Source: Octopus vulgaris
Lineage: Eukaryota
DNA: 64,000 nucleotides
Direction: 5' to 3'
Assembly: GCA_951406725.2 (NCBI GenBank)
Contig: OX597816.1
Coordinates: 20,026,001 to 20,090,000, forward strand
A program made the translations under genes and the position numbers. Under the pieces are notes generated by a model, which worked only from the letters and a program-made list of their open reading frames with translations, did no database searches and had not been told where the DNA came from. How positions within the stretch are numbered: the first letter of the stretch is position 1; the number at the start of each line of letters is the position of its first letter. Shown here piece after piece: positions 6,306 through 64,000 of this stretch.

Positions 6306-6935
6306 TATAACACCTGAGGGTCTCATGCTGTTTTTTGCAGGTATTGAAGCTGCTTATTCTATTCAAGAACATATTTTCTAGAAATAGCAGAAAAACCTCC
6401 CTGAAATTATACTGTATCGTTTTGAAAAAAGGAAGACTTATTGGATTATTATTCTCTGATATGCTGTGACTGAAAGAGCGACAGGGGTTTTATGGCTAAA
6501 AGGTTTTCATCATACGTCAACTGAATCAATGACTTGCTGTCGGTTATCTTGCATTGTAAGTTAACCTAAAGCAACAATCCGTAGTCGATTACGTATTTAA
6601 CAAATGTGCATTAAAGATATTGGACCCCATGTAAGTGTACTATACAAATATGTGCTTATAAGACAACTTTTTAGTGAAGTTAATTGCTATATCGCATAAT
6701 ACTGAACTTTATCAACAGGAAGATTTTGTTAAAAAATGAATAAAATTATTTTTACTATTGACTCGCATAGCTAGCCAAGCTGAGTTTCATCAAGTGATCA
6801 CACGAAACTGAATGCAATTTAATTAAATAGATCCTCCATTCAAATTGCTGATCCCGTTTCAAAATTAGAAGGAGATATTTGGCGTGCTTCTGCTACCATA
6901 ACAATTTAATTTTATGAATATTATACAAAATAATG

Positions 6936-7183
6936 TGGAGGTGCGTAGCTTAGTAGTTAGGGTGTTGAACTCATGATCGTAAGGTTGTGGCTTCGATTCC
7001 TGGACCGGGTGATGCGTTGTGTTCTTGAACAAAACACTTCATTTTCACGTTGCTCCAGTCCACTCGGCTGGCAAGAATGAGTAATCCTGCGACGGACCGG
7101 CGTCCTGTTCAGATGGGGAATTTCTACGCCACTCAAACCGGGAAACTGGCCATTATGAGCCTGGCATGGCTCGAGAAGGAACA
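6936..7183 (+). mobile_element. tRNA-derived SINE, family 2
   Basis: tggaggtgcgtagcttagtagttagg...ggcttcgattcctgg (A/B boxes); homologous to 18917-19162; ttatacaaaata on both sides is a possible TSD. Confidence 0.8.
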
Positions 7184-7664
7184 TTAATTTTATTTATACA
7201 AAATACTAATGTGTATTAATAATAAATAAATACGTCCACTATTTATCGCTTAATAAACTAATCAATATACTTCAAATAACTTTGTATGGACTAACATCTG
7301 CATTCTATTGTAGCTTCAGACCACTCAAAAGTAGCTTGTATGATATTGCTATATCATATTGCCATACGACCGAGTGGTTTATGGCACATGGTATAAGCAT
7401 TTCAAGTCATGCAGTACGAATACATGCCGATTTAATAGCACAATGTATTATTTGAAACGTGTTTAATTATTTTCCTGCCAGAGCGTGTTAGTCAGCGACA
7501 CAAATTTCAAATATTCCGACAGTGACTGTCGCATGATTTGCAGAGGTTACTACAATATACATGCATGTGCTGACGTCATTAGTACATACAAATACGCATG
7601 CGTATGCACTTGTGCATATGAATATTACGGGATATATATAACATTTATAAAATGCATATGCGAT

Positions 7665-22289: not shown

Positions 22290-22505
22290 TATTTGTTTTT
22301 TGCCCACAAGGGACAAAACATAGAGGAGACAAATAAGGACACACAAAGGGATTAAGTTGATTACATCGACCCCAGTGCGATTTTAAGAGGTATTTAATTT
22401 ATCGACCCCTAAAGGATGAAAGGCAAAGTCGACCTCGGCGGAATTTCAACTCAGAACGTAGCGGGAGAGGAAATACCGTTAAGCACTTCGCCAGCGTGCT
22501 AACAT
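22290..22505 (-). mobile_element. tRNA-derived SINE, family 3
   Basis: Minus strand gagttgaaattccgccgaggtcgactttgcctttcatcc; tail cccttgtgggcaaaa. Confidence 0.8.
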
Positions 22506-23421: not shown

Positions 23422-23587
23422 AGGCGCAGGAGTGGCTGTGTGGTAAGTAGCTTGCTAACCAACCACATGGTTCCGGGTTCAGTCCCACTGCGTGGTACCT
23501 TTGGCAAGTGTCTTCTGCTATAGCCTCGGGCCTACCAAAGCCTTGTGAGTGGATTTGGTAGACGGAAACTGAAAGAAGCCTGTCGTA

Positions 23588-23653
<66 letters not shown>

Positions 23654-23830
23654 GCGTGTGTATGTGTGTTTGTGTGTCTTTGTTGTCCCCTCCCCCTCCA
23701 ACATCGCTTGACAACCGATGCTGATGTGTTTACACCCCCGTAACAACTTAGCGGTTCGGCAACGTAGGCCGATAGAATAAGTACTAGGCTTACAAAGAAT
23801 AGGTCCTGCGGTCGATTTTTGCGCTACACA
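23422..23830 (+). mobile_element. tRNA-derived SINE, family 1
   Basis: Close match to 3281-3686. Confidence 0.85.
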
Positions 23831-25247
23831 GGCGCGACTCTCTCGCATCAATACTTTTTCTTTTTACTTTTTTCCATGACAACAATATCTTCAATATTAC
23901 TTTAGCTTTATCATACGTTTTTTTTTTTACATATATAAAGCTAAAGTATGGTTGAGTAGTTAAGAAGCTCGTTTTACAGCCTCATGGTTTGAGTTTCTTT
24001 TTCCGATGCGCAGCGTCTTCAACGAGTTTCTTCTACTATAGCGCCGATACGACCAATGCCATTTGAGCATCTGAGCTGCGTAGAAACCCGTCATATCTGT
24101 GTGGGGGCGGAGTGACTACGTGTTTGTGTATCGTTGTGACTCTGTTTGACACCATCATCCCTCTGCTTGATGATCGGTGAAAAGGACAGACACCTAAGTT
24201 TTCCCTTGTGTGCCAAATTGAAAGTAACTGGAAAGGAAATGCACTTGAGAAGCTGGAAATCTGCATTTTCTGCAACACAAATAGAACAAATAGTTTTCTC
24301 CTAGTTCAAAGTATTACCAGGCAGGGTATCTATGTAAACGTGGCCTCAATACATTCATTTTTTTTACATGAATGTAGAGGTATGAAGATATCAAAATTAG
24401 CTTTGTTTTAGTAGAGCAGTTTTCACACAAATTCCTTGCTGCTTAACCTCTATTCAATGAACTCGAATGGAATAACCTGTTGAAACCATTATAATGGAAA
24501 CAAAATATGTGTATAAAGTGATTTTTTTAATAGCAATATAATTTGTTGTAAGTACTTTTTTCATTCATTAACTCTCTTATTTGCAGCTTTCCCCGCATAA
24601 ACTTAAAGTTAGATATGAAAATCAGAATTGTTATAATTATGATGCTATAAATATATGAATATATAAAGACTAATCACTCATCGGCACACGTTTAATCACA
24701 CAAATACACTCAGACACAGACACATGATCGTACCTATGTTATGCTACTTTGAACTATCTATATTTTTTTATGATTCTATAAATTTATCAACACATGCTTT
24801 CGGTTGCTGGCGATATAATTGCAATTATTAGCAAGCTTTCCTGTTTTATTTACGAGTCATTCAGCTTATTTTGTAAGGTAATTTGTTGTCTGCATTTTAG
24901 CGTATATTTTTAATGATTCTCGTTTCTTTCGACATTTTTGCTTGTCTCGAATCTTTTCAGAGCTCCGTCATATTTATCAAGTGATACTGTTCTTTATCTA
25001 ACCTTGAATTGCTTAATAATTACTGGTTTATAGTTGGACTCTTATGCTTATACAAATCACAACATGCATTTAGGTACATTTATAAGATGCATATGCATGC
25101 AGACAGCGTTAATTGTATTTCTCGAATTTGGACTCTACATAGATAATACAATAATTCATAGTCTGAAATAATTCAACATAATGACTACTTGAACCAGTTG
25201 GCTTATTCACTATTGAAACAAAATGATCCTAGCTAACATATATATTA

Positions 25248-25540
25248 TGTTTTTATTGACCACAAGGGGCTAAACATAAAGGGGGCAAACAAGAACAGAC
25301 AAACGGATTAAGTTGATTACATCGATCCAGTGCATAACTGGTACTTATTTAATCGAACCCGAAAGGATGAAAGGCCAAGTTGACCTCGGCGGAATTTGAA
25401 CTTTGAACGTAGCGGCAGACGAAATACCTATTTCTTTATTACCCACAAGGGGCTAAACACAGAGGGAACAAACAAGGCAGACGAAATTCCGCTAAGCATT
25501 TCACCCGGCGTGCTAACGTTTCTGCCAAATCGCCGCCTTA
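25248..25540 (-). mobile_element. tRNA-derived SINE, family 3, with an internal extra copy of its tail
   Basis: Head taaggcggcgatttggcagaaacgttagc (minus); 47-bp tail copy at 25429-25475 flanked by a 15-bp direct repeat. Confidence 0.85.
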
Positions 25541-27184
25541 TATATTTAGTCAACATCTAGACAACATATATATTGATATAGAAGCAGGTTTCTGAACAGT
25601 CCAGCTTGAATTGAACAACTTTTAGTATTGGCGACATTGACATATCTGTTGGAGTGTCATAAATTCATAACCCAGATTGAACACCTGCACTGTTTGTCTA
25701 AATTGTATATTTTTATCAAATATATATCAGATCACCATCAACCGTCTTCTCAGAACTACTGCTATTTATTTAATTTTGTTATTTGATTTGCAAGATACTT
25801 GGTGTGAACTCTTTTGTCGAAACGGATGTTATTATATCTCGGGAGGGTCATTATGCCAATAATATTCTTATTATTCACTTCTTTTACATTAAGCCTATGT
25901 ACCAATCGATTTTGATTAATCGTCCGGCATGTCATTGATGAAACCATGAACGGCGATGAAAGAACTGTGACAAACCTACCTGACTGATTGATTGCTTGAA
26001 CAATTAATGAAACAAGCAATTAGTTAATTGGTTAAATGTCAATGTGTTGACAAATAATGAAAGAAATGAAGATGATCCAGTGCGTGTGCTTATTATTAGC
26101 ATAACGACCCTCTAAGGATACACGTGGAGGCTATAAATATGGCATTAATATGAGCAGTGTATAATCTACTGAAGATTTTCCCGTTTACCAGCACATTTCT
26201 GATAGATGATAAAGCTTAACGATAAATAACAACACAAGCGGGAAATGTAAACTTGGAAATTCATAAGTTTGTCATGTCACACGTGGACACTAATATTACA
26301 ATGTCTATCCAAATTAAAGTTTGGCTGTCAGTGACTTTGCAAATGAAATACATAAAAAAACTATATATAGAAACACCCAAAAATCAAGAACGGTACGGGG
26401 ACAAATTATTATTATTATAAAACAAAATATGAACGTATATGAAAAAGTACATTATTCATACAATTAATAACGAAAGGACGTAAATGAACAAGGTTTTAAG
26501 AGTGTCTATTATTGAAATTCGGAGAACGCCAAGATAAGAGATATTCGTGAATTACAAAAGACATTAATATATGTATGCATCACCGGTATTTTCAACAAAA
26601 GAATATTTCAACATTATCCCAAACGATTATTCCTCCCAAACTATGCAAAAATGAAATGGAAAGCAATGTATTTGCAACAAAATGGGAACCAAAATTATTA
26701 ACAGGACTATGGTCTGGGAAGACACATTCACAAAGAAAATATTCAAGATAAATTATGTAGCACACGCAGTCATAGGGAGCCACATGAACGCAAAAGATAA
26801 CAGAAGCGGGAAACAAAAGCTATGTTGAATATTTGATACAGTTATAAGAAACTAGATTTCTGGTCGCAATATGTAACAATGGCACATGCAGTGCTAGCAA
26901 TAATTATAAATAACTTAACATTGTAGGAAACATACTGGAACTGCTCATTAATTGCAAGCTCCAAGATTAAACGAAGAACAACCACTAAAACCACTACTAA
27001 ATATTTCTACCTGCTCCCATACTTCTTACACCCCAGAATAATGATAATGCTACACGATAAAATATCAAGTCTAGTACGCATAAACATAAATTAATCTCCA
27101 GAACAGAACACAAATTTTCAAAAACAAAACCCAAAAAGTCATAGTTTTATAAGATAAATGGAGACTTATACTTGAAAATATTAA

Positions 27185-27400
27185 TTTTTTTATTGCCCAC
27201 AGGTGGCTAACCATAGAGGGTCAAACAAGGACCAACAAAAGGATTAAGTCAATTACATCGACTCCAGTGCGTGACTGGTATTTATTTAATCGACCCCGGA
27301 ATGATGAAAGACAAAGTCGACCTCGGCAGAATATGAACTCAGAATGTAACACCGATCGAAATACCGCTAGGCATTTCGCTTGGCATGCTAACGATTCTGT
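27185..27400 (-). mobile_element. tRNA-derived SINE, family 3
   Basis: Homologous to 22290-22505 and 25248-25540. Confidence 0.8.
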
Positions 27401-28045
27401 CAGTATATTAGTCGTATTGAAAATATTAGCCGCAAGTGTAGCAGCACATTATAAATGTGTGCTTAGTATGTACCATTAGCATGCTATGGATAAAATTCAG
27501 ATAAGGATTCGGGTACAAACAAAACCAGATAAGAAGTAATTTTCTTTTCTTTGCGAAGAGCAACGCTGCAAGAGACTTTTCTATATCTTATGCATTTTAA
27601 AAAAAATCATGATAAACCCAACTGAATATATAAACGGTATAAAAACATTAATCAACTATCTTTTTTTTATAAACTGCAGATAATCAGAGAAGTAAAGTAA
27701 GCTACATGGATTTACTAAAGGAATTCATATGAGATTCAATTTAGAAGACTGTGACAATACAATGCTGAAGAAAAGAGAATTATTTTCGAAAAATCTCTGC
27801 TGTTTATGTTAGTGACAATTGAGCAAACGCAAACTAATAAATACTTAGGAATTAATCTGTAAGTCTATGTGAAGGACACATAAGTAAAATAAATAGAAAC
27901 TGGAAAAAATATCATTGACGTATTTGATTAATTCTTAAAGCACTTCTAATTGCAAAAATACGTGAGGTAATTGGTTTGAATATTCTAAGTATCCTACTAA
28001 TAACTTATAGATTAATTCTCCACTCATAGATATATTACCTGATCG

Positions 28046-35050: not shown

Positions 35051-37254
35051 CTTTGATAGGTTCGGCCATTATTGGCCCAGGCCATGTCTAACTTAATAGC
35101 ACCACCTGGTGAAGTCTTTCAAGTCAGAATTTGGGCACTATGGCCCACTCAAGTAGAGAGTTATTGTTTACAGAGACATATCCGGGTGTAGGGGGTTTAT
35201 CCGGGATTTCTTGAAGGAATCTGTCCAAAGACTTCTTGAACCCTATAGGGTCAGTTTCTGTTTTAATGTGTTTTGGTGTAATGTTAAAGAGAGCGGGGCC
35301 AATTGAGGTGAAATAATTGTGCCGTATTGTTGTTATGAGATGAGAGTGCGATTTTTGTTTTGGGCGGATGGCACGGGGCCCAAGCCTTGGATGTACCTTA
35401 AAGGTGATGCCAACATCATTTGGGCAATGCTGATGGAATATTTTCCACATCATGCAGATGATGTAGCGCTCACGACGACGTTGGAGAGAATAGAGTTTTA
35501 GCTTTTCTAGTCGACCCCAATAGTCGAGGCCTGTCATGCCATCTATCTTTTTTGTGATTGCCCTTTGAGGTGCTTCGACTTTTATGATACCTTGTATTGT
35601 GTGGGGAGACCACAGTGGACAACAGTATTCAAGGTGGGGTCGGGCAAAAGTGGAGAAGAGAAGGATAATGGTGTGGATATCTCTCGACTGGAAAGTTCTG
35701 AGAATCCAGGAACACATTCTGCGGGCCATGTCAACTTTGGTGTTTATATGAGTGGCCCAGCTTATGTTGTTGTCCACAATTACTCCCAAGTCTCTGATGT
35801 TGTTGGACGCCGCGAGAGTTTCACCTGAAGGAAGGGAGTATGGGAGTTTCAGGGCATCCTCTTTTCCAAAGTGGATTAGCTCAAATTTATCCTCGTTCAG
35901 CAGCATATTGTTTTTTTCTGCCCATTGGATAACAGCCAGTAGATCTGACTGAAGGCATGTCCGGTCACTCGCCTCATTTATGACCTTCTGTAGCTTGGAG
36001 TCATCTGCAAAGATTTTTATGTTGCTGTGCTTGATGATGTCATTAATGTCATTAATGTAAATGATGAAAAGAAGTGGGCCCAGCACAGTGCCTTGCGGAA
36101 CGCCACTACTGACTTTGGCTGGGCTTGATTTTACCCCTTCAACTACAACATGTTGAGATCTGTCTGTCAGGAAACACTTAATCCATTTCAGTAACTTTCC
36201 AGAGACACCAATGTTGGATAGTTTTTTCAATAGGATCTTGTGATCGACCCTGTCGAAGGCCTTACTGAAATCAAGGTAGATGACATCGGTGTTGGAGCCC
36301 TCTCCCAAAGCTCTCAAAATGTCCTCAAAGTGATGCAGGAGCTGCGTTAGGCAGTCCCTTCCATTACGGAACCCATGTTGGTTGGAGATCAGCCGTCTGT
36401 TGCTTTCCAGAAATTGGGTTATTTGAGATCTCACCACCCTCTCAAATACCTTGATGATATGAGAGGTGAGTGAGATCGGACGGTAATTCACTGCAAGGGA
36501 CTTGTTTCCCTTTTTGAAAACTGGGACAACAGACTGGGACAGAAGGTTTTTTGGAATATAGCCAGCATCCAGTGAGTTTCTCCACAGATTAGCAAGGGGA
36601 GATGCAAGTTGGTGTCGACACACCTTCAGGACACAAGCAGGGAACCTATCGGGGCCTACTGCTGAATTGTGTTTTATTTCGTTTATCGCCGCTAAGACAT
36701 CAGGGGCACTAAACGTTATGTCCGATATAGTGTGTTGGGGGTTGACATCACTGATACAGCCCAGATCGGCCATATCAGGATTGCTGAAAACAGAGCAGTA
36801 TTGTTTCTGCAGTATCTCGGCCATGGATTTGGCATTATCTTGGAGAGTGCCAGTTTCGTCAATTAGAGGGCCTACAGTGGAGACAGTGACCCTGCGTTTC
36901 CTCGCAAATGAAAAGAACACTTTGGGGTTGAGTTTGATTTTTTCAATGGCCCACTTCTCCTCAGCTGATCTTTGGTTATTGATGAGGGACTTCATGCATT
37001 GTTGGAGGTTATATTTTTTGGATTCAAGCAGTGCGATAGCCGTCGAATGTGTGTGTTGCTGTTGGCAGTACTTTAGTTTGTTAATTTTTTTGTTTGTTCT
37101 TTTTATTTTTCTGATAATGGTTTTTCTGTTTTGGGGGATTCTGCACTTTTTGTTCACAGGTCTTGGTGGGGAGTGTTTTGCACATATGTCTGTGACGGTG
37201 TCTACAAAGATCTGCCAAGATGTTTTATGGTTGGTGGAGATGTGTGTATGTGTG
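35051..37254 (-). mobile_element. 5'-truncated CR1-group LINE (family A)
   Basis: Open ORF2 fragment runs into the TA array at its 5' end; short 3' UTR ggtggtgct..catggcc; flanked by (TA)n. Confidence 0.9.
35124..37157 (-). CDS. LINE ORF2 reverse transcriptase, N-terminally truncated (no endonuclease)
   Basis: [42 protein letters not shown] motifs. Confidence 0.9.
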
Positions 37255-40642
<3,388 letters not shown>

Positions 40643-43546
40643 CAGAAATACACATGCCGCAATATGCAGTCATACGCACAGATAGAAAAGGGAGGAGCCA
40701 TGGTGGAGTTGCAATGTACATCCGAGATGACCTCACGCCCCAGGTCCTGCTGTCATATTCAAACTCAGTATGTGAAACTCAAATTGTACACATAAGACAA
40801 CTGAATATCGTCATATGCACTACATATCGCCCACCAGACGCCCCAAAACACTCAGGCATGTTTGAAGACTGCCTAACAAAAATAGGAGAAGTCCTCACCA
40901 ACCTTGAACAGCACAACAGTGTATTCTTCATGGGTGACTTTAACCTCCCCAATGTGGAATGGCCTGGGGGGCAGATGCTCCCAGGGATGACACACCATCA
41001 GCAGGCACAGGTGGAGTCCCTGCTCCATCTCACAAATACCTCTTTCATGGAGCAAATAGTTCTGCAACCAACAAGGGCAGATAATATACTGGATCTCTGC
41101 TTTACAAACAATATGGATATTATCCATAATGTTAATGTGATGCCGACAATGATCTCGGATCACAACATAATAGAGCTGTCTACGTATGGAACAAAAGCCC
41201 CCGCAGACACACAGCCTATACGAAGCACCCACCATCTCTCCAACTTAAACTTTCATAAAGCCAACTGGAAGTCGATTGAGAAAGAGATCCTCAAACAGGA
41301 TTGGCCTGAATGTCTCTCCACACCGGACATAAACATGAAACACAAACACTTCATGTCCATAATACAAGCCATATGTGACAAATATGTCCCAATGTGCAGG
41401 GCCAGCACACACAAGAATAAAAACAGGATCCCTAGAGAAAGGAGGATTCTTATGAGACGACGGACAAGGATTGCAAACCGCCTGAGCAAGCACACCAAAA
41501 GTGGTGAGAAGTCTCGGCTCGAAAGAATGCTAATGGAAACTGAGAAAAGTCTACATCAGTCCCATGAAAAGGAGAGAGCAGATAAAGAAGCTTGGGTAAT
41601 AGAAAATATAAAATCAAACCCTAAAGCTTTCTTTAAGTTTGCCAAAGAGACAGCCACAGTGCACCAGAGAATAGGACCTCTCTTCCAAAAAGATGGCTCT
41701 CTCACAGGAAATCCCACGAGGATAAGTGAAATACTGAACGAACAGTTCCAAAGTGTATTCACTACACCTCTAGGACACAGGCAAGTAAACAACCCAGAAG
41801 AATTCTTTGCCACTTTACCAGCGGCCAAAGAGACAAAAATTGAGTACATCAACATCGAAGAAGATGATATCACACTAGCCATTGATGAGATTGACACAAA
41901 CTCAGCTGCTGGACCTGATGGATTCCCAGCGATCCTTCTCAAATCGTGCAAACGAGCCCTTGCAAAACCGCTACAGCTTCTTTTTCAGAGCTTTCTTGCA
42001 AGTGGTAAGCTCCCAGTCAAACTGAAAGAGGGGGTAATATGCCCTATCCATAAGGGAGGTAGCAGAGCAGATGCTAAAAATTATAGGCCTATCTCTCTGA
42101 CCTCACACATCAGCAAAGTCATGGAACGAATAGTCCGTAAGAAACTAATCATGTTCCTTGAAGAAAATGACTTACTGTCTGACACCCAGCATGGATTTCG
42201 ACCAGGTAGAGGCTGCCTAACACAGCTCCTGCAACACTATGACTGGGTGTTGAAACAGCTACTAAATGGCTCAAATGTGGATGTAATATATCTTGACTTT
42301 GCAAAAGCCTTTGATAAAGTCGACCATGGTATGATCTGTCACAAACTGCGTGGTCTCGGCATAGGCGGGAAACTTGGAGAGTGGCTGCACAACTTCCTAA
42401 AAGACAGAAAACAGGCAGTTGTGAGCAATGGAGCCACCTCCAGGGAAACGCAAATAACAAGCGGTGTCCCACAGGGCACTGTCTTGGGGCCACTGATGTT
42501 CATAGTGGCCCTTTCAGACATGCCTTCAGTTGCTACGATGACCACCCTTGCTAGCTATGCAGATGACACAAAGGTCTCCCACGCAATACAGAACCCTGAA
42601 AATATTGCGCATCTGCAACATGAGCTGGACACAATATACAGGTGGGCTGAGGACAACAACATGCAGTTTAATGCAGGTAAGTTCCAGGCCCTGCGCTACT
42701 GGCACACAAAGGTAAATGACGTGAAGACTGGATACACTGGCCCAGGAAGAATTGCAATCCCTGAGTCAAAATCAGTGCGTGACCTGGGCATTGACATGAG
42801 CAATGATGCATCTTTCCAAATGCATATTGCTAATCTGGTGATAAAATGCAGACGGCTAGCTGGATGGATTCTCCGAACTTTCAGAACAAGAGAGAAGGAG
42901 ACACTGATGGTCCTATGGAAAACATTTGTCCTCAGCCGCTTGGACTACTGCTCCCAACTTTGGTCACCACACAATATAAAACAAACAGCAGAACTCGAAG
43001 CAACTCAGAGAAGCTACACAAAGAAAATCGTCTCAATGCAAAATGTCAGCTACTGGGAAAGACTGAAGGTATTAAACCTCTTCTCCCTGGAGCGGAGGCG
43101 GGAGAGATATGCAGTAATATACATCTGGAAAATCCTGGAGGGTCTTGTCCCAAACTTTGGCATTCAAAGTTACTCCAACCGCAGAACGGGCGCCGCTGCG
43201 TGGTGCCAAGGATTCCAACATCACCATCAAAATACAGGTCCAGATACTGCAACAGCTTGGGTTTCAGAGGACCACAGCTTTTCAACATCCTCCCTAAATG
43301 CCTGAGAGACTTACATGGTGTGGATGTGGGTTTCTTTAAAACTAAACTGGATCTCTTCTTGTTGGGAGTCCCAGATGAACCTACCTCACGACAGGAGACA
43401 CGGATGCGGGCAGCAGCATCGAACTCCCTTGTTGATCAAGTGCCACGTATCAGAGGTGGATTCACAAACTAGTGTGGCTCATTCAGCGGTGGTGCCCCAG
43501 CATGGCCGCGGCCTTCGGGCTAAAACATTTTTAAGGATTTAAGGAT
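40643..43546 (+). mobile_element. 5'-truncated CR1-group LINE (family B, copy 2)
   Basis: ORF2 with partial APE and RT; tail ggtggtgccccagcatggccgc..(tttaagga)2; flanked by (TA)n. Confidence 0.92.
40654..43472 (+). CDS. LINE ORF2 (partial APE endonuclease plus RT), frameshifted near the C-terminus
   Basis: DR..HGGV, YRPP, GDFN, LDL, SDH (APE); [18 protein letters not shown] (RT); the C-terminal [18 protein letters not shown] segment lies in ORF 42846-43472. Confidence 0.9.
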
Positions 43547-44692: not shown

Positions 44693-44762
<70 letters not shown>

Positions 44763-44925: not shown

Positions 44926-45600
44926 TATATATGTAATTTTTCATTTTTATATTTATACTAGCATTAATGACCCGTCATTGCCGGGTTATAGTGCTAGTGC
45001 ATGTTTATACGTGTATATATATATGTGTACATATTACATGTACATCTATATATATACATCTACACATAAAATACAAAATACAAAGTTATATATTGATATC
45101 GCTAGTGATAACAATACTCAAAATATATAACAGACTGGAATTGTTAGCCCGTCTCTTTTAATTTTGATCAATTGTATCTTGTCCTCACACTTGTATAGAA
45201 GTGTAGCTACATTCCAGCCTACCTCTACTTCTGGGGCGGGGGCATTTTAAATTTTTTTCCGGGACGTCCTACGTCCCAGATATAAAGGTGAAAATAAAAT
45301 ATTTCCACTTTGCAAGTTCGAGTCGAGTACTCCCTTTCACGCTCCGTTGACTCGAACCTTGCTTCTATTGTGGCGAATTTATCGCCTCTGATTAGATACT
45401 TTTCATAGTCGCACCAAGACACTTTTCGAAGGTGCTTTCCTCCATGTGATTTCTTTATTACCCACTAAGGGGCTACGAAGAATGGCGGACATAACAAAAC
45501 ATGGGGACATAGAACATTATAATTAAACTTTATGAAAATGAATTGTTAAACGAAAAAAATGATAAAATGAAAGCGATACCAACGGCCCCGTCCGTCAGCA

Positions 45601-47014
45601 TCACTTACCTGTCCTTTGTTTTTCATAGTCACTTGAATGTTCTTTGTCAATACGAATAAATTCCATATCCATTCTTACTCCGAAATACTCATCCATATTT
45701 TCCACGAATTCATCGCTCATTCTTATATCTTTCACCTCCCAATTCTCCCTTTCACACCTCCCCATATACTCACCTATGTTCTTCTTTTCAATCACAGCAT
45801 ACCTAGTCTCTCCAACATCATACCATTTATACTCTTCCATTAGACTTTTAACTTCTTTCTGTTCAGTCATAGTACAAATGTACGGCCTGGGTTCGATTTC
45901 AATCTCTTGTGTGTGTGTATTCTTTTTTTCTTTTGTTTTCTTGTTGGGGGGAGCGGGTGGGTTCAATGTCTGCATGGATAGGGTGGGACTCAGAGGGTGT
46001 GGGTGGTTTTGGGGTAGATTGGAGTTCCATATTATTTTCTTTTTTTCCACGTATTCTTCTCTTCCTCTTACTTCCAGCTTCCTTCCATTTCTGTGTATTC
46101 TCTTCCTCTGTTTCCTTCTCCTCTGGTTTCTGCTTCTCTCTCTGGTTCGGAATCCATTTCTTTCCCTGGGGGAGGGCAGAAGGCTCTTATGTGACCCCTC
46201 AGGCCACACTTGTAACAACGTGGAGCCCTGCCCTCCACCCACACTCTCATGATCACGTCTCCCAGTCTGATGCTTTCCGTCAGGTCCACCAGTACCTCGG
46301 TCTCTGCCTGTACGTTCAGCTCCACCGTTACGCCTCTCCAGCCCTCGGACTTAACCGAGGCATGGAGAATATCCACTCGTCCTCGTGGCCGCTGATCACA
46401 GCCGCCACAATCCATTCTGCCTCCACGTTTGGTGGCACTCCCTCCACCCTTATTCGTGTAATCCTCCTGTTTAAATACGTAGGTAATAGGGTTACCTTTT
46501 CTGACTTCACCGCCTTCGCCGCCATCTTCCTCGCTGCAGTCTCAGTTTTGAAATGCACAACTACGGTACCGTACTTGGATCCTCGAGTCAGAAAATCTAT
46601 TTCCTCCTCAGTTCCTCGCAGGGCCTCCCGCATCCATTCCATGGTTACAACTTCCACCCTCCTCCCTTCGCCCGCGAACACCCTGCAAACAATGGTCCTC
46701 CCATCACACCATTCCCCTCTCCTGGGTGTCGGTGATAGTTCCACCTCACCGCCTTCCCCCTTCATGCATTTCTGGTAACTTGGCAACTTGGCCACGTCGA
46801 CCCCTCTCTCTTCCGCCTTCTTGGCCACACCGGCATAGGTATAACCCAGCCTCTTTTCCAAATTCCTTGCTGCCACTTCTAGCTCTTTCTCAGACGTAGG
46901 CAGGTCTGATAAAGACTCGAAAACTCCAGCCCTCTCTTCCATCAGCTTCATTGCAATTGCCTGTTCCAGTTCCTCATCTGTCGTGGACAAGTCTGTTAGA
47001 GACTCATAGTCCAC
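45601..47014 (-). pseudogene. Unit 1 Gag/ORF1-like zinc-knuckle protein (subfamily A), frameshifted, GTG start
   Basis: Fragments 46328-47014, 46068-46415 (CYKCGLRGHIRAFC) and 45601-46242. Confidence 0.8.
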
Positions 47015-47462
47015 TTCCCTCTGTCTGACAGACCGAGAACGGCCGCCAAAACAGAAAAAGTGTAACGCGCTGAACGAGCGAAACGCGAAACCGCGTCAAC
47101 GCCGTTCAGAATCTCCACAACAACAACAACGCTTTTTGTTCCCTCTTACCGAATTTCAGGAGCCGAAAAAAACACGGATTTTTTTATTACCCACAAGGGG
47201 CCACGAAGAGGGGGACATTACAAGACGGGACATGGGGTACATAAAATAAAATAAAATATGAAGTAAAGATGAATTATATGTAATGAGATGGAACGGCTTA
47301 CGAACCCCCAACTCGCAGTTCCGTTTAAAATACAATTGTACATTTCATATATTCCAATACAATTTTACAGTTACATATATTCCAGTACAATAATTTTTAC
47401 ATGTTAACATTCAAAATACAACTTTACATCATACAATTTTACAATTAACAATTCTAATTCTT

Positions 47463-48817
47463 TTACATTAGACGCTCGTCCGTCATATAATCCAATAGAT
47501 CCATTTGGTCTATTACATCTGGTAATTTATCATACCGTACATAATGCATTATATGCATAGCATTAAATATCTTTTTTAATTTTATGTATGTCTCTTTGTC
47601 TATAATGACGCCTTTTACATCTTCACCATACAGTTTTGGGTTCACCTTCACCCTGATCAACCCTTTCTTACCTACAAGTCTCTTTTCCACTTCTGTATTC
47701 TTGATATACATCACAACTGCCTTCAAGTTTTTCCCTGTAGGCCTTCTTCCATATTTACACGATTCCAATTGTTCGTTCACTCTTGTCTCCCATTCTTGTT
47801 CAAACTCTGTCCTTGGCCGCTCTCTCTCCTTCTCTTTTACTTCCTGTCCTTTGTATGTTTTCTCTTCTCTCTCTTCTGCTATCTTACTTTTGATTTTTTT
47901 CTTTTTTTGGAGATCTTTCGGTGGTGATTCCACCCTTGATCTCTTCCTATCTTCTGTTTTTTCCTCTTCTGTTTTTTCCTCTTCTGCACTTGCTCGTTCT
48001 TCCTCATTTAACTGCTCCTCCATTCGTGTTTCCTCCGCTTTCGCTTCCTCCACACACGCATCTTTACACTCCTCTATCACAACTTCTGGTGCTTTTGTTT
48101 TTTCCCGCGGGCACACATCCTTCATGTGGCCCCTCGATTTACAATTATAGCAGATTGGGGTCTTCCCTCTACCACAACTCGGAGCCGTGTTTCGTCAGGG
48201 TAGACCAACTCCTCCGGGATGTTGTACAGGTCTCGCACGGTTATGTGTGCCAGAACCTGCACCGTATATCCCCACCACTTAACCTCTGCTGACTTCTCCA
48301 CCTTCAGTACCTCCACATCATCCTTGCAGTTAAACAGCACCGCCGCCAGCAACCTTTCCATATTAAATTCGGGTGAGATTCTATTGATTCTCATCCTCAC
48401 TGCTCTCCTTCCGCAGTAACTTGGTAGCAAAGTCCACTTATCCGACTTCAAAATTCTTGTTGCATTCTTTTTTGCCTCCTCTTCTGTTTTAAAATACACC
48501 ACCACCGTGGCATACTTCCTTCCTCTTTTGAAAAATGCGGGTTCACCCTCAATTTCCTTCAGACACCTTTCTACTTCTTCCATTTCCGCTACTTCAATTT
48601 TTTTCGACTCCACGCACCACGTCCTGTACGTTATAGTACGCTTCTCTGCACTGCTTTCCTCCTCCTCGGACGGTGTGACTATCACACAGTCACCCTCCCT
48701 CTTTAAACTGTCGAAATACTTCTGTAAAGTCTTCTGTTCGACCATCACCTCCTCCATTTCCAGTTCACCGGCAACCAGGCCTCTGCCTGCCGCTCGCGCG
48801 TAAGTCTGCTCTTGCAT
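47463..48817 (-). CDS. Unit 2 Gag/ORF1-like protein (divergent subfamily C), one frameshift
   Basis: LLPSYCGRRAVRMRI..RVVVEGRP; across the frameshift at about 48155 it reads CYNCKSRGHMKDVC (CCHC). Confidence 0.8.
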
Positions 48818-49144
48818 TTTCAAGAAAAAAAATTATTCCACGTCCTCCAACGAACTCGAACTCACAACGTCTTTACTCGAAATAAACACACCAGAATAAA
48901 CACACCAGAATAACTCCAACTAACTAACTCAAAAAAAACGCGACCGAACTCAAAATTGCTGTTTCATTATATCGGGAGCCGAAAAAAACACGTATTTCTT
49001 TATTACCCACTAAGGGGCTACGAAGAGTGCCGGACATCACAAAACATGGGGACATAGAACATTATAATTAAACTTTATGAACATGAATTGTTAAACGAAA
49101 AAATGATAAAATGAAAGTGATACCAACGGCCCCGTCCGTCAGCA

Positions 49145-50564
49145 TCACTTACCTGTCCTTTGTTTTTCATAGTCACTTGAATGTTCTTTGTCAATACGAA
49201 TAAATTCCATATCCATTCTTACTCCGAAATACTCATCCATATTTTCCACGAATTCATCGCTCATTCTTATATCTTTCACCTCCCAATTCTCCCTTTCACA
49301 CCTCCCCATAAACTCACCTATGTTCTTTTTTTCAATCACAGCATACCTAGTCTCTCCAACATCATACCGTTTATACTCTTCCATTAGACTTTTAACTTCC
49401 CTCTGTTCAGTCATAGTACAAATGTACGGCCTGGGTTCGATTTCAATCTCTTGTGTGTGTGTATTCTTTTTTTTTCTTTTGTTTTCTTGTTGGGGGGGAG
49501 CGGGTGGGTTCAATGTCTGCATGGATAGGGTGGGACTCAGAGGGTGTGGGAGGTTTTGGGGTAGATTGGAGTTCCATATTATTTTCTTTTTTTCCACATA
49601 TTCTTCTCTTCCTCTTACTTCCAGCTTCCTTCCATTTCTGTGTATTCTCTTCCTCTGTTTCCTTCTCCTCTGGTTTCTGCTTCTCTCTCTCTGGTTCGGG
49701 ATCCATTTCTTTCCCTGGGGGAGGGCAGAAGGCTCTTATGTGACCCCTCAGGCCACACTTGTAACAACGTGGAGCCCTGCCCTCCACCCACACTCTCATG
49801 ATCACTTCTCCCAGTCTGATGCTTTCCGTCAGGTCCACCAGTACCTCGGTCTCTGCCTGTACGTTCAGCTCCACTGTTACGCCTCTCCAGCCCTCCGACT
49901 TAACCGAGGCATGGAGAATATCCACTTCGTCCTCGTGGCCGCTGATCACAGCCGCCACAATCCATTCTGCCTCCACGTTTGGTGGCACTCCCTCCACCCT
50001 TATTCGTGTAATCCTCCTGTTTAAATACGTAGGTAACAGTGTTACCTTTTCCGACTTCACCGCCTTCGCTGCCATCTTCCTCGCTGCAGATTCACTTTTA
50101 AAGTGCACAACTACGGTCCCGTACTTGGATCCTCGAGTCAGAAAATTTATTTCCTCCTCAGTTCTTCGCAGGGCTTCCTCTATCCATTCCATGGATACAA
50201 CTTCTACCCTCTTCCTTTCGTTTGCGCACACCCTGTAAACAATGGTCCTCTTGTCATACCATTCTTTTCTCCTGGGTGTCGGTGATAGTTCCACCTCACC
50301 GCTTTCCTTTTCCATGTATTTCTGGTAACTTGGCAACTTGGCCATGTCGACCCCTTTCTCTTCCGCCTTCTTGGTTACACCGGCATAGGTATAACCCAGC
50401 TTCTGATCCATTTTCCTCACTGCTATTTCTAGCTCCTCCTCAGATGTAGACAAGTCTGATAAAGACTCGAAAACTCCAGCCTTTTCCTCCATCAGCTTCA
50501 CTGCAATTGCCTGTTCCAGTTCCTCATCCGTCGTGGACAAGTCTGTTAGAGACTCATAGTCCAT
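49145..50564 (-). CDS. Unit 3 Gag/ORF1-like protein (subfamily A), one homopolymer frameshift
   Basis: 373-aa ORF with CCHC plus C-terminal segment in ORF 49145-49597. Confidence 0.85.
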
Positions 50565-50899
50565 TTCCTTCTGTCTGACAGACCGAAAACGGCCGCCAAA
50601 ACAGAAAAAGTGTAACGCGCTGAACGAGCGAAACGCGAAACCGCGTCAACGCCGTTCAGAATTTCCACAACAACAACAACGCTTTTTGTTCTTTTTTACC
50701 GAATTTTCAGGAGCCGAAAAAAAAACACGGAGCCGAAAAAAAGCCCGTATTTCTTTATTACCCACTAAGGGGCTACGAAGAGTGCCGGACATAACAAAAC
50801 ATGGGGACATAGAACATTATAATTAAACTGTATGAACATGAAGTGTTAAACGAAAAAATGATAAAATGAAAGCGATACCAACGGCCCCGTCCGTCAGCA

Positions 50900-52315
50900 T
50901 CACTTACCTGTCCTTTGTTTTTCATAGTCACTTGAATGTTCTTTGCCAATACGAATAAATTCCATATCCATTCTTACTCCGAAATACTCATTCATATTTT
51001 CCACGAATTCATCGCTCATTCTTATATCTTTCACCTCCCAATTCTCCCTTTCACACCTCCCCATAAACTCACCTATGTTCTTTTTTTCAATCACAGCATA
51101 CCTAGTCTCTCCAACATCATACCGTTTATACTCTTCCATTAGACTTTTAATTTCCTCTGTTCAGTCATAGTACAAATGTACGGCCTGGGTTCGATTTCAA
51201 TCTCTTGTGTGTGTGTATTCTTTTTTTTCTTTTGTTTTCTTGTTGGGGGGGAGCGGGTGGGTTCAATTTCTGCATGGATAGGGTGGGACTCAGAGGGTGT
51301 GGGAGGTTTTGGGGTAGATTGGAGTTCCATATTATTTTCTTTTTTTCCACATATTCTTCTCTTCCTCTTACTTCCAGCTTCCTTCCATTTCTGTGTATTC
51401 TCTTCCTCTGTTTCCTTCTCCTCTGGTTTCTGCTTCTCTCTCTCTGGTTCGGGATCCATTTCTTTCCCTGGGGGAGGGCAGAAGGCTCTTATGTGACCCC
51501 TCAGGCCACACTTGTAACAACGTGGAGCCCTGCCCTCCACCCACACTCTCATGATCACTTCTCCCAGTCTGATGCTTTCCGTCAGGTCCACCAGTACCTC
51601 GGTCTCTGCCTGTACGTTCAGCTCCACTGTTACGCCTCTCCAGCCCTCGGACTTAACCGAGGCATGGAGAATATCCACTTCGTCCTCGTGGCCGCTGATC
51701 ACAGCCGCCACAATCCATTCTGCCTCCACGTTTGGTGGCACTCCCTCCACCCTTATTCGTGTAATCCTCCTGTTTAAATACGTAGGTAACAGTGTTACCT
51801 TTTCCGACTTCACCGCCTTCGCTGCCGTCTTCCTCGCTACAGATTCACTTTTAAAGTGCACAACTACGGTCCCGTACTTGGATCCTCGAGTCAGAAAATT
51901 TATTTCCTCCTCAGTTCTTCGCAGGGCTTCCTCTATCCATTCCATGGTTACAACTTCTACCCTCTTCCTTTCGTTTGCGAACACCCTGTAAACAATGGTC
52001 CTCTTATCATACCATTCTTTCTCCTGGGTGTCGGTGATAGTTCCACCTCACCGCTTTCCTTTTTCATGTATTTCTGGTAACTTGGCAACTTGGCCATGTC
52101 GACCCCTTTTCTTCCGCCTTCTTGGTTACACCGGCATAGGTATAACCCAGCTTCTCTTCCAATTCCCTTGCTGCCGTTTCTAGCTCCTTCTCAGACGTAG
52201 GCAAGTCTGATAAAGACTCGAAAACTCCAGCCTTTTCTTCCATCAGCTTCATTGCAATTGCCTGTTCCAGTTCCTCATCTGTCGTGGACAAGTCTGTTAA
52301 AGACTCATAGTCCAT
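50900..52315 (-). CDS. Unit 4 Gag/ORF1-like protein (subfamily A), frameshifted
   Basis: Fragments 52064-52315, 51139-51984 and 50900-51139. Confidence 0.8.
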
Positions 52316-52643
52316 TTCCTTCTGTCTGACAGACCGAAAACGGCCGCCAAAACAGAAAAAGTGTAACGCGCTGAACGAGCGAAACGCGAAACCGCGTCAA
52401 CGCCGTTCAGAATTTCCACAACAACAACAACGCTTTCTGTTCTTTTTTACCGAATTTTACAGAGCGCAAAAAAACGTATGATTTTTTATTACCCACAAGG
52501 GGCCAACGAAGAGGGGGACATTACAAGACATGGGGACATGGAACATCACAATTACATATATATGAGCAAAATGGAATATGAAAAATGATATATGAGAGCG
52601 ATACCGACGGCCCCATCCGCCAGCATCACTTATCTGTCCTTCT

Positions 52644-53972
52644 TCACCCATTTTCAATTAGTATTCCTGTTTCAACTATCACAACATTCGTTTTTCTTTT
52701 AGCCCTCTCTATCCATTCATCTTTCATTTCCACTGACTTCCAACACACACCCTCTTCCTCAAACCTTGTCGCCAATATACCCGTATCCTCACTATCCACA
52801 GCCGTGTAGCTCCAATCTTCGTGTTCGTACCACTTGGTTAACACCAGTTTTTTAACGTTTTGTATGTCTTTCCCTTGTATAACACATAAAAAATGGGTCT
52901 TGGGACTTTCTTTGCTCTGTGTGTCTGTTTTTGTTTTTCTTGTAGGCGGGGAGTGGGTGGAATCACTGTTTGCAGGGGAAGGATGGGACTCCAAGGGTAT
53001 GGGTGGTGTCGGGGTGGGTTGGGGTTTCGCACAGTTTTTCTTTTTCTTTCTCTTTCTCTTTGTTCCCACTTCTTTCCACTCTTGTTGCATCTCCTCTTCT
53101 TCTGTCGTTTCCTTCTCTGTTTGTTTCTGTTTATTTTCTTCCTCTCCTGAGGCTTCCTCAACGCTTTCCTTTTCTTTTTCCTTTGGTGGGGGAGGGCAGT
53201 AGGCTCTTATGTGACCCCTTTGGCCACACTTGTAGCACCTGGGCGCCCTACCCTCCACCCACACTCTCATAATAATATTTCCAGTTTTTATGCTGTCCGT
53301 AATCCTCTCTATAACATCCGCCTCCGCTTGAACGTTCATAACTAGTGTGGCACCTCTCACGCCTTCATACTTCATAATGGCGTGGAGGATGTCCACTTTA
53401 TCTTCATTTCCTTTTATAACCGCAGCCGTTATTAATTCGCCCTCTAGGTGTGGAGGTATTCCCTCCACCCTAATTCTAGTTGTCCGCCTATTCAGATACG
53501 AGGGTAACAAGTAAATCTTTTCTGTACTCACCACCTTGGCTGCTACATTCCTGGCTGCTTTTTCGCTTTTAAATTGCACCGTTATCGTTCCGTATTGTAA
53601 TCCTTTTGTCATGTACACAATTTCCTCTCCTGTCTGCTTGAGAGCCTCTTCAATTGCTTCCATGTTGATTACTTCCATCTTTCTACCTCCATTCATAAAT
53701 ACTTTATATTTAATGGTTCTACGATGGAACCAGTCTCCGCGCCCTACTGGATGCAGCAGCTCGACTTCACCGTTCTCGTCCTCCTTCACAAACTCCTGGA
53801 GGCCCGCCAACTTAGCCAAGTCTATCTCTCTTTCCGTTGACTTCTTCGTTACACCTGCGTAGGTGCCTTCCATCTTTTTCACCGCCAACTCCTCCTCAGA
53901 TGTCGATACTTCCGTCGAAATTTCAGAGTAAATTCTCCCTTCCATCTCCTCCGCTTGATGGAGGCGGCTCAT
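52644..53972 (-). CDS. Unit 5 Gag/ORF1-like protein (subfamily B, ..IENG C-terminus), intact 442 aa
   Basis: Uninterrupted from MSRLHQ; CYKCGQRGHIRAYC; KRKRKKKK NLS-like motif. Confidence 0.88.
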   Translation of the reverse strand: MSRLHQAEEMEGRIYSEISTEVSTSEEELAVKKMEGTYAGVTKKSTEREIDLAKLAGLQEFVKEDENGEVELLHPVGRGDWFHRRTIKYKVFMNGGRKMEVINMEAIEEALKQTGEEIVYMTKGLQYGTITVQFKSEKAARNVAAKVVSTEKIYLLPSYLNRRTTRIRVEGIPPHLEGELITAAVIKGNEDKVDILHAIMKYEGVRGATLVMNVQAEADVIERITDSIKTGNIIMRVWVEGRAPRCYKCGQRGHIRAYCPPPPKEKEKESVEEASGEEENKQKQTEKETTEEEEMQQEWKEVGTKRKRKKKKNCAKPQPTPTPPIPLESHPSPANSDSTHSPPTRKTKTDTQSKESPKTHFLCVIQGKDIQNVKKLVLTKWYEHEDWSYTAVDSEDTGILATRFEEEGVCWKSVEMKDEWIERAKRKTNVVIVETGILIENG

Positions 53973-54317
53973 AGACGCCTCCAGCCGAAAAAACGGCCTC
54001 CCGAACCGAAAAAGTGTAACGCGCAGAACCAGTGAGACGCAAAACCGCATCAACTACGTTCAAAATTTTACAACAACAACCATTCACTTTTTGTTCTTTT
54101 TTCTTTTTACCGAATTCCACAGAGAGCAAAAAACACAGAGCCGAAAAAACCACATGATTCTTTATTACCCACAAGGGGCCAACGAAGAGGGGGACATTAC
54201 AAGACATGGGGACATGGAACATCACAATTACATATATATGAGCAAATGGAATATGAAAATGATATATGAGAGCGATACCGACGGCCCCATCCGCCAGCAT
54301 CACTTATCTGTCCTTCT

Positions 54318-55648
54318 TCACCCATTTTCAATTAGTATTCCTGTTTCACCTATCACAACATTCGTTTTTCTTTTAGCCCTCTCTATCCATTCATCTTTCA
54401 TTTCCACTGACTTCCAACACACACCCTCTTCCTCAAACCTTGTCGCCAATATACCCGTATCCTCACTATCCACAGCCGTGTAGCTCCAATCTTCGTGTTC
54501 GTACCACTTGGTTAACACCAGTTTTTTAACGTTTTGTATGTCTTTCCCTTGTATAACACATAAAAAATGGGTCTTGGGACTTTCTTTGCTCTGTGTGTCT
54601 GTTTTTGTTTTTCTTGTAGGCGGGGAGTGGGTGGAATCACTGTTTGCAGGGGAAGGATGGGACTCCAAGGGTATGGGTGGTGTCGGGGTGGGTTGGGGTT
54701 TCGCACAGTTTTTCTTTTTCTTTCTCTTTCTCTTTGTTCCCACTTCTTTCCACTCTTGTTGCATCTCCTCTTCTTCTGTCGTTTCCTTCTCTGTTTGTTT
54801 CTGTTTATTTTCTTCCTCTCCTGAGGCTTCCTCAACGCTTTCCTTTTCTTTTTCCTTTGGTGGGGGAGGGCAGTAGGCTCTTATGTGACCCCTTTGGCCA
54901 CACTTGTAGCACCTGGGCGCCCTACCCTCCACCCACACTCTCATAATAATATTTCCAGTTTTTATGCTGTCCGTAATCCTCTCTATAACATCCGCCTCCG
55001 CTTGAACGTTCATAACTAGTGTGGCACCTCTCACGCCTTCATACTTCATAATGGCGTGGAGGATGTCCACTTTATCTTCATTTCCTTTTATAACCGCAGC
55101 CGTTATTAATTCGCCCTCTAGGTGTGGAGGTATTCCCTCCACCCTAATTCCTAGTTGTCCGCCTATTCAGATACGAGGGTAACAAGTAAATCTTTTCTGT
55201 ACTCACCACCTTGGCTGCTACATTCCTGGCTGCTTTTTTCGCTTTTAAATTGCACCGTTATCGTTCCGTATTGTAATCCTTTTGTCATGTACACAATTTC
55301 CTCTCCTGTCTGCTTGAGAGCCTCTTCAATTGCTTCCATGTTGATTACTTCCATCTTTCTACCTCCATTCATAAATACTTTATATTTAATGGTTCTACGA
55401 TGGAACCAGTCTCCGCGCCCTACTGGATGCAGCAGCTCGACTTCACCGTTCTCGTCCTCCTTCACAAACTCCTGGAGGCCCGCCAACTTAGCCAAGTCTA
55501 TCTCTCTTTCCGTTGACTTCTTCGTTACACCTGCGTAGGTGCCTTCCATCTTTTTCACCGCCAACTCCTCCTCAGATGTCGATACTTCCGTCGAAATTTC
55601 AGAGTAAATTCTCCCTTCCATCTCCTCCGCTTGATGGAGGCGGCTCAT
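54318..55648 (-). CDS. Unit 6 Gag/ORF1-like protein (subfamily B, IENG), frameshifted
   Basis: Near-identical to unit 5, with 1-nt insertions at about 55150-55240. Confidence 0.8.
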
Positions 55649-55986
55649 AGACGCCTCCAGCCGAAAAACGGCCTCCCGAACCGAAAAAGTGTAACGCGCA
55701 GAACCAGTGAGACGCGAAACCGCATCAACGCCGTTCAGAATTTCCACAACAACAACAACGCTTTTTGTTCTTTTTTACCGAATTTCAGGAGCCGAAAAAA
55801 AACACGACCTTTTTCTCTACATACTTTATAGACAATTGATTCTTTATTACCCACAAGGGGCCAACGAAGAGGGGGACATTACAAGACATGGGGACATAGA
55901 ACATTATAATTAAATTTATGAAGGATGAATTGTTACATGAAAAAATGATAATATGAAAGCGATGCTAAAGGCCCCATCCGTTAGCA

Positions 55987-62482: not shown

Positions 62483-62829
62483 AGTCGCCTCAGACCGAAA
62501 AACGGCCTCCCGAACCGAAAAAGTGTAACGCGCAGAACCAGTGAGACGCGAAACCGCATCAACTATGTTCAAAATTTTACAACAACAACCATTCACTTTT
62601 TGTTCTTTTTTACCGAATTTCACAGAGAGCAAAAAACACAACAATCCTGCTTACCGACTCAAACTGATTTCTTTATTACCCACTAGGGGCCAACATAGAG
62701 GGGACGTTACAAGACATTGGGGACATGGAACATCACAATTACATATATATGAGCAAAATGGAATATGAAAATGATATATGAGAGTGATACCGACGGCCCC
62801 ATCCGCCAGCATCACTTATCTGTCCTTCT

Positions 62830-64000
62830 TCACCCATTTCCAATTAGTATTCCTGTTTTCACTATCACAACATTCGTTTTTCTTTTAGCCCTCTCTATCC
62901 ATTCATCTTTCATTTCCACTGACTTCCAACACACACCCTCTTCCTCAAACCTTGTCGCCAATATACCCGTATCATCACTATCCACAGCCGTGTAGCTCCA
63001 ATCTTCGTGTTCGTACCACTTGGTTAACACCAGTTTTTTAACCTCTTCCTGTTCTGTCATAATACAAACGTTCGGCCTGGGTTCGCTTTCAGTCTCTTTG
63101 TCTGTCTGTGTTAATTTTTTTTTGTTTTCTTGTTGGAGGGGAGCGGGTGGGTTCACTGTCTGCAGGGGAAGGATGGGATTCAGAGGGTGCGGGTGGTGTT
63201 GGGGCGGGGTTGGGGCTTCGCACATTTTTTTCTTTTTCTTTCTTTTTCTCTTTTTTCTGCCTTCTTCCCACTCTTGTTGCATCTCCTCTTCTTCTGTCGT
63301 TTCCTTCTCTGTTTGTTTCTGTTTATTTTCTTCCTCTCTTGAGGCTTCCTCAACGCTTTCCTTTTCTTTTTTCCTTTGGTGGGGGAGGGCAGTAGGCTCT
63401 TATGTGACCCCTCTGGCCACACTTGTAGCACCTGGGCGCCCTACCCTCCACCCACACTCTCATAATAATATTTCCAGTTTTTATGCTGTCCGTAATCCTC
63501 TCTATAACATCCGCCTCCGTTTGAATGTTCATAACTAGTGTGGCACCTCTCACGCCTTCATACTTCATAATGGCGTGGAGGATGTCCACTTTATCTTCAT
63601 TTCCTTTTATAACCGCAGCCGTTATTAATTCGCCCTCTAGGTGTGGAGGTATTCCCTCCACCCTAATTCTGGTTGTCCGCCTATTCAGATACGAGGGTAA
63701 CAAGTAAATCTTTTCTGTACTCACCACCTTGGCTGCTACATTCCTGGCTGCTTTTTCACTTTTAAATTGCACCGTTATCGTTCCGTATTGTAATCCTTTT
63801 GTCATGTACACAATTTCCTCTCCTGTCTGCTTGGAGAGCCTCTTCAATTGCTTCCATGTTAATTACTTCCATCTTTCTACCTCCATTCATAAATACTTTA
63901 TATTTAATGGTTCTACGATGGAACCAGTCTCCGCGCCCTACTGGATTCAGCAGCTCGACTTCACCGTTCTCGTCCTCCTTCACAAACTCCTGGAGGCCCG
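62830..64000 (-). CDS. Unit 11 Gag/ORF1-like protein (chimeric C-terminus), cut by the window edge
   Basis: Fragments 63762-63983, 63350-63847 and 62830-63282. Confidence 0.78.

Follow-up and report, generated by a model that had tools for sequence, protein, structure and literature searches.

The window analyzed here, a 64,000-nucleotide stretch of the Octopus vulgaris genome, contains two kinds of repeat that finish in the same 3' tail: copies of SINE family 3, and an array of ~1.7 kb units that each encode an ORF1-like (Gag) protein with a CCHC knuckle and neither RT nor ORF2 (Table 1). Every tail in the window marks a 3' end on the minus strand. The array mixes families A, B and C and extends from 45447 beyond the window end to ~65263; such arrays are interstitial, the window lying at 20 Mb of a 182-Mb contig. 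Another SINE family, which lacks the tail, is also present, at 23423-23830 (+) and 44500-44920 (-).

Table 1. Features of the tail-bearing repeats and of the array host (window coordinates).
Feature	Position	Strand
SINE family 3 monomer	22291..22503	-
Complete quasi-dimer of SINE family 3: head and deleted monomer with its tail, then second monomer and outer tail	25247..25539	-
Shared tail, end of the first (internally deleted) monomer of the quasi-dimeric SINE	25429..25477	-
SINE family 3 monomer	27178..27405	-
Helitron-like host, 3' part; starts at the insertion site, ends in hairpin and CTAG	44957..45446	-
Gag-only unit, family B; last in array, adjoins host 3' part	45447..47178	-
Gag-only unit, family C; divergent, with a frameshift splitting the ORF	47179..48995	-
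Two Gag-only units, family B	48996..52481	-
Two Gag-only units, family A; ORF 52644-54050, 468 aa, CCHC knuckle	52482..55839	-
29-nt copy of host sequence, including the TATA word, between two units	55808..55836	-
Four Gag-only units, family A with a different C-terminal part; ORF 59408-60772, 454 aa	55840..62668	-
Gag-only unit, family A; array continues past the window	62669..64000	-

The first-pass annotation had described the SINE tail at 25432 as identical over 22 nt to the 3' ends of array units. This identity was exact: the 22-mer occurs at 25432 and at five unit ends (54158, 55840, 57548, 59261 and 60964). With up to three mismatches allowed, we found 12 tail matches in the window and none in 100 shuffles. 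Related tails were present near the places already proposed (22297, 25253 and 27190), and the divergent unit has its own at 47180. The tail at 25432 is real, but it is not the end of the SINE as had been supposed; it closes the first, internally deleted monomer of a quasi-dimer whose true outer end lies near 25247 and whose second monomer begins ~46 nt into the head. Multimers are common in this family, with later monomers beginning ~46 nt into the head. We rejected the reading of the tail at 25432 as a separate insertion in a SINE head, since it is the deleted monomer of a common multimer. Elsewhere, SINE family 3 forms a satellite of 184-bp period across the entire 3.2-kb locus L175, and in L171 and L375 we observed cross-nesting, with a SINE dimer within Gag-like coding sequence and a B-type unit within a SINE head.

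SINE family 3 is short (~230 bp), non-coding and flanked by duplications, and has a LINE-like tail. Its target-site duplications, found in 22 of 50 full copies, measure 12-28 bp and frequently start with GTAT or TATT. Its earlier designation as a tRNA-SINE was not confirmed, as ARAGORN predicted no tRNA gene and Rfam gave no tRNA match for the head, in which A-box- and B-box-like words were read by eye. By description it may resemble the octopus OK/OR1/OR2 SINEs, which are likewise abundant in octopods and have A-/B-box-like words (Ohshima and Okada 1994, as cited in PMC4758252). The excerpted text of PMC4758252 and PMC3531059 names no partner for octopus SINEs.

The first-pass annotation had suggested looking upstream of the tail for ORF2-encoding elements. 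One such element, E, carries ORF1 and ORF2 and lies past arrays on contigs C2 and C10. Its intact ORF2 is 1131 aa long, with APE, RT and zf-RVT (C-terminal zinc finger) domains; the ORF1 upstream has a CCHC knuckle, although the zf-CCHC match is weak (E 0.04). The best solved match of the ORF2 was human L1 ORF2p (E 5e-65, compared with 5e-26 for R2), and its nearest named relative was from Argonauta (58%). By sequence, E classifies as a LINE of the L1 group. Element E ends in the shared tail, and has a target-site duplication, a 12-bp word on both sides, in the Helitron-like host. A zf-RVT search led to further families, with ORF2 identities to E of 72-75% (F), ~80% (J) and 93-95% (E2). E, E2, F and J share the terminal motif of the tail, and G, K and others carry variants of it. 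Hence, elements encoding an RT of the L1/Tx1 group do end in this tail, excluding the case in which no such element exists; the proposed single unseen LINE serving two passengers is instead a clan of at least four autonomous families, none of them seen with the exact tail of the SINE. No named Tx1 reference was among the ORF2 homologs found. The clan shows target preference for repeats; the Tx1 label, as opposed to L1 proper, is our assumption from target preference, an ORF1 with CCHC and the lack of poly(A), which we take to be features of Tx1.

The window itself contains two RT elements distant from the clan, at 35124-36995 (-) and 38447-43472 (+), between long TA runs; the second carries two copies of one segment (38447-39768 and 42151-43472), which have the same translations. 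We rejected the RT elements at 35124-36995 and 40654-43305 as the partner because they are only 26-29% identical to the E RT and lack the tail at their ends. Beyond the window, autonomous LINEs of family K (L218-L219) form a separate head-to-tail array with 17-bp duplications, and L034 contains, at ~5550-7200 (-), a decayed relative of the clan with ~70% DNA identity to the E ORF2, which ends in a tail variant and then a TATC microsatellite.

We compared the tails of these elements over 57 nt. Similarity of the SINE to the array units continues past the 22-mer, as claimed, but the Gag-only units resemble the SINE no more closely than the LINEs do (44 matches to unit A, 44 to LINE F, 44 to LINE G and 43 to LINE E). 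The tail nearest to that of unit A was that of LINE F (47/57). The SINE tail appears composite, its upstream 29 nt matching family G and its terminal part matching E/F. None of the 155 exact SINE tails found belonged to a LINE: 153 had a SINE body upstream, and the other two were one inverted and one truncated SINE. A search with a 40-nt pattern, aimed at any LINE carrying this tail, gave 122 matches. In the tails examined, AATAAA or AGTAAA directly follows a 3-4 bp stem, the letters of which differ in C2, G and M; hairpin stability was not above that of shuffles (z -0.07 to -1.6). Long A runs occur at 3 of 106 tails; we rejected these as terminal poly(A), the runs being internal to the tail. 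From sequence comparison, the tail is likely the signal by which the clan RT copies the SINE and three Gag-only lineages; counting against this are the lack of the exact SINE tail on any LINE found and the hairpin result.

Near-identical copies of the Gag-only units occur on many contigs. First-look searches gave 675 and 361 candidates, and 607 for a fourth family, D, so that the copy numbers of 361-675 per family are numbers of search candidates. The first-pass annotation had suggested comparing the LINE ORF1s with the array proteins. In a tree of 30 natural ORF1 copies, with near-identical rows merged and frameshifted copies omitted, A+B, C and D formed three supported clades distant from any partner ORF1, none of them falling within an autonomous family, with stem lengths of 0.6-0.95 changes per site. 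For the Gag-only clades, 11 comparisons of diverged ORF1 copies gave pN/pS values of 0.17-0.34, four partners in these comparisons being assigned to their clade by the tree only; two comparisons of near-identical A copies carried no information. The values were similar to those of the autonomous ORF1s (0.09-0.27; 4 comparisons). We conclude that these are three old Gag-only lineages under purifying selection. A homolog search with ORF1 returned nothing at E 0.001, the Atlas matches were zf-CCHC and ZCCHC3-like clusters, and the fold predicted from one sequence had a pLDDT of 40 and was set aside.

The array lies inside the same 1.2-kb repeat in 13 of the 14 regions fetched. This repeat matches a non-autonomous Helitron in its 3' hairpin followed by CTAG and in its insertion before T; its 5' end lies within a TA run. 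We take it to be Helitron-like, a label that rests partly on features taken as typical of such elements. The 3' part in the window contains a captured ORF1 fragment (74% to the family G ORF1), and the 5' part, with the TATA word, lies just beyond the window end at ~65264-65900. An Rfam scan of the empty host gave repeat-driven noise only. Among the best 30 host copies, 22 were empty and 8 were filled, and the filled ones have one 3' junction in common. Families E and D duplicate one 12-bp word in the host, and arrays whose leading unit is A, B, C or F join it ~11 bp earlier than those of the D/E type; a tally of junctions gave 18 of the A/B/C/F-led type, 12 of the D/E type, 20 empty and 3 other. 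Different LINE families, E and F, enter the same host site. In 8 of 13 arrays the final unit observed was an E-type LINE, shown in 6 cases to adjoin the host 3' part, and 5 of 13 had no LINE. The order is not invariable: in L318 an E tail lies ahead of a D unit, and the L211 array begins with an F element.

Divergence indicates how the arrays were filled. The host 5' flanks differ by 4.1% among filled arrays and by 4.3% among empty copies, compared with 0-3% among the passengers; E copies are 1.2% apart, and for 16 of 23 B units the nearest copy is in another array. The divergence of hosts relative to passengers, together with the B copies, indicates that the hosts were already dispersed when the elements inserted into them. 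By contrast, A units differ by 0.9% within arrays and by 2.4% between them, indicating that local copying or tandem duplication also acts. The tail forms the terminus of two truncated B units, one truncated at its 5' end and the other lying in antisense orientation. L087-L088 (C1:74680142-74682816) has an antisense, 5'-truncated B copy inside a B unit, its 5' end meeting the homologous position of the host unit. Based on the target-site duplications, the 5' truncation, the dispersed copies and the greater divergence of hosts than of passengers, we conclude that the Gag-only units are retrotransposed passengers and not ordinary genes, as had been proposed.

We also considered the units as Helitron cargo, a tandem gene family grown by unequal exchange with a piece of SINE serving as poly(A) signal. 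The location of all window units inside the Helitron-like host, the homogenization of A units within arrays and the AATAAA within the tail are consistent with such cargo; however, hosts are more diverged than their contents, most hosts are empty, units with duplications occur in many other hosts, and the same tail ends RT-encoding elements. We regard this explanation as highly improbable. Our preferred explanation, which we consider probable as a whole, is that the tail is the common 3' end of an L1/Tx1-group clan whose RT copies the SINE and the Gag-only passengers, with stacking at one Helitron-like site. It draws on direct observation for the autonomous elements with their tail, for the common site and its empty hosts, for the target-site duplications and for the selection on the Gag frame. 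Mobilization would occur in trans through recognition of the tail, and repeated insertion at one site of the Helitron-like repeat would thereby yield mixed head-to-tail arrays, which would grow mainly on the 5' side with some local duplication. Against this explanation stand the arrays in which the LINE is not last (L318, L211) and the tandem duplication of A units.

The ends of the units suggest how they may be transcribed. Unit 5' ends carry short pieces that match the insertion sites of other loci: the tag of the C unit in the window (47179..48995) matches L371, that of L384 matches L376, and that of L369 matches the host of L367. The 29-nt host tag with the TATA word is repeated after the tails at 57548, 59261 and 60964, giving four junctions in the window. 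The genome has exactly two copies of a 31-mer belonging to a histone H3 promoter, one in front of the H3 gene and the other at the 5' end of a family F LINE. The simplest reading of these tags would be that transcripts begin in the flank near the insertion point; an RNA starting in the host TATA flank would therefore begin with a copy of the old insertion site. Clan elements end 5-6 nt past AATAAA, without terminal poly(A). Poly(A) cleavage usually falls 10-30 nt past AATAAA. Because the element ends 5-6 nt past this signal, the 3' end of the RNA would lie in host target DNA. We give about even odds to the reading that the units' own promoters are weak and that transcription is driven by the host TATA box ~30 bp upstream, the RNAs carrying the old insertion site as a 5' tag.

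Clan elements outside the Helitron-like host occupy many unrelated sequences. Of the 73 sites tried, 41 yielded a duplication call, a proportion that counts against our preferred explanation, and some of these calls are internal tags or wrong (L228, L275); removal of one array-internal site left 40, representing 21 hosts. With one count per host, a TATA word (TATAWAWR with at most one mismatch, starting at -35..-25 before the duplication) was present in 13 of the 21 unrelated hosts, compared with 8.2% of random positions and with 0-4 of 21 when the interval was shifted upstream in the same hosts. When an exact word was required, the count fell to 3 of 21. For the 14 hosts outside the set from which the idea was formed, by our own split, the count was 7 of 14 (p 5e-5). 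SINE sites had a TATA word in 4 of 22 cases (Fisher p 0.005 versus the clan); the Gag-free SINE, with its 12-28 bp duplications, has no TATA link. With motif and interval fixed in advance, we then scored the B-variant subfamily (18 loci, minus four array-internal and three truncated, with same-host repeats merged into 8 hosts) and observed the spacing in 2 of 8 hosts (p 0.14), for a pooled count of 15/27. Thus, TATA spacing is strong in some families and weak in one; this last result makes promoter targeting a lead rather than an established property and, together with the 3 of 21 exact words, weakens that part of our explanation.

Several target repeats have further features. Hammerhead-like motifs lie 30-60 nt beyond the insertion site in the 3' flanks of L276, L278, L256, L154, L152 and L275; no such word reached the Rfam gathering score in the four loci scanned. 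The host of L256/L272 has apparent terminal inverted repeats. A promoter-like repeated host (L289, L312, L314, L371), entered by families F, J and B, has an octamer-like word and TATTTAAA, with a CCAAT box in L312 and L314. In the related loci L140, L145, L159 and L283, a mariner piece is present downstream. At ~5270 (-) the window has an empty copy of the mariner-type site that is the target in L376.

A fixed distance from TATA could arise if an ORF1 or ORF2 protein bound TBP or the Pol II pre-initiation complex and nicked ~30 bp past any TATA box, much as TRE5-A behaves at tRNA genes, with Gag-only proteins as targeting adaptors in the role played by HeT-A Gag. Such guidance would account for the spacing in unrelated hosts, including the single sites L053, L075, L079, L214, L294 and L229, for its lack in the SINE, which has no Gag, and for the captured histone H3 promoter piece, and it has an analog in the TRE5-A ORF1, which binds TBP in vitro (PMC5391098). 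However, besides the count of 2 of 8 in the B-variant subfamily, each subfamily goes back to its own host (the C2 subfamily has 11 called sites in one repeat), and the E lineage cuts near +40, not +30. We consider this guidance unlikely. Plain Tx1-type specificity, in which the endonuclease of each family reads its own DNA word and TATA-like words are chance AT-rich neighbors in a few dominant hosts, strikes us as somewhat unlikely: it has precedents in Tx1L, Keno and Tx1-Mar (PMC4494074), and the single 12-bp duplication word used by E and D in the Helitron-like host and the non-significant B-variant result are consistent with it, but the same Gag-only family, which lacks an endonuclease, uses unrelated words across hosts, LINE families E and F enter the same host site, and the upstream-shifted intervals did not reproduce the TATA excess.

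A bolder reading is a form of promoter piracy, to which we give a little less than an even chance. The clan would enter Pol II start sites ~30 bp behind TATA, in repeats and histone promoters, and be transcribed by the host from its first base, so that tags log earlier sites; Gag-only hyperparasites would insert in front of an autonomous element, take its promoter and terminate at their own AATAAA, and the Gag-free SINE would not be targeted in this way. Under our preferred explanation, flanking target sequence on the RNA could pair with a like site and would help it home to the same kind of promoter. R1Bm is said to require downstream target sequence (PMC7265360), and R2 targeting is said to gain from co-transcription with the target (PMC4494074). 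Homing by flanking RNA and tethering by TBP both fit the data; their predictions diverge at single-copy sites.

Parts of this system have precedents. Tx1 elements target other transposons and in crocodilians move a SINE (PMC4494074; PMC6719617). As here, Tx1L/Tx2L in Tx1D, and Tx1-Mar with SINEU, are Tx1-type LINEs in a non-autonomous DNA transposon, with tandem insertions around a duplicated target, a SINE on the same machinery and proposed transcription from the flank (PMC4494074). By contrast, the octopus host is Helitron-like, the main passengers code for ORF1, the arrays reach ~20-25 units, several LINE families use common sites, and the SINE has the same tail but not the same target. In Dictyostelium, TRE5-A.1 and TRE5-A.2 pair an APE-RT element with an ORF1-only derivative moved in trans, as proposed here; their tandems lie at a fixed promoter distance, a possible parallel to the TATA spacing, and the TRE5-A ORF1 binds TBP in vitro (PMC5391098). 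However, TRE5-A lies ~50 bp upstream of Pol III genes, its 5' end toward the gene, and has its own promoter, whereas the octopus clan often inserts in sense orientation behind a TATA word; TRE5-A.2 arose by deletion from its partner (PMC5391098), whereas the octopus Gag-only ORF1s are lineages distant from any partner ORF1. HeT-A, TART and TAHRE also mix Gag-only and autonomous elements head-to-tail, and take their promoter from upstream of the unit, as the octopus units may do, but are Jockey-clade, telomeric and poly(A)-ended (PMC5537684), whereas the octopus arrays are interstitial, of the L1 group and without terminal poly(A). HeT-A, HAL1 and Ag-Sponge are ORF1-only (PMC5786205; PMC5537684). 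The latter two are, like the octopus units, ORF1-only non-autonomous LINEs, HAL1 being from the L1 clade, but the excerpted text gives no targeted arrays or same-tail SINE for them (PMC5786205). The excerpts of a 2026 octopus repeat annotation list 13 recently active L1-Tx1 families and mention no targets, arrays or ORF1-only forms (PMC13282606). Our search of the open-access literature returned no report of this combination, nor of any LINE that targets TATA promoters or start sites of Pol II. We conclude that the parts have precedents (Tx1L in Tx1D, HeT-A, HAL1, TRE5-A.2) and that the combination is one for which we found no report; the clan families may already be catalogued in Repbase.

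Overall, these data connect an L1/Tx1-type engine with several hundred protein-coding repeats as well as with a major SINE of octopods, and mark the Gag arrays as transposons and not gene families. One tail has three users, LINE, Gag-only element and SINE, which differ in site choice, providing a natural experiment on whether the site is picked by ORF1, by the endonuclease or by flanking RNA. If the TATA spacing holds, this would be a non-LTR element that targets Pol II start sites, with a bearing on cephalopod promoter evolution and on RNA-based gene insertion tools.
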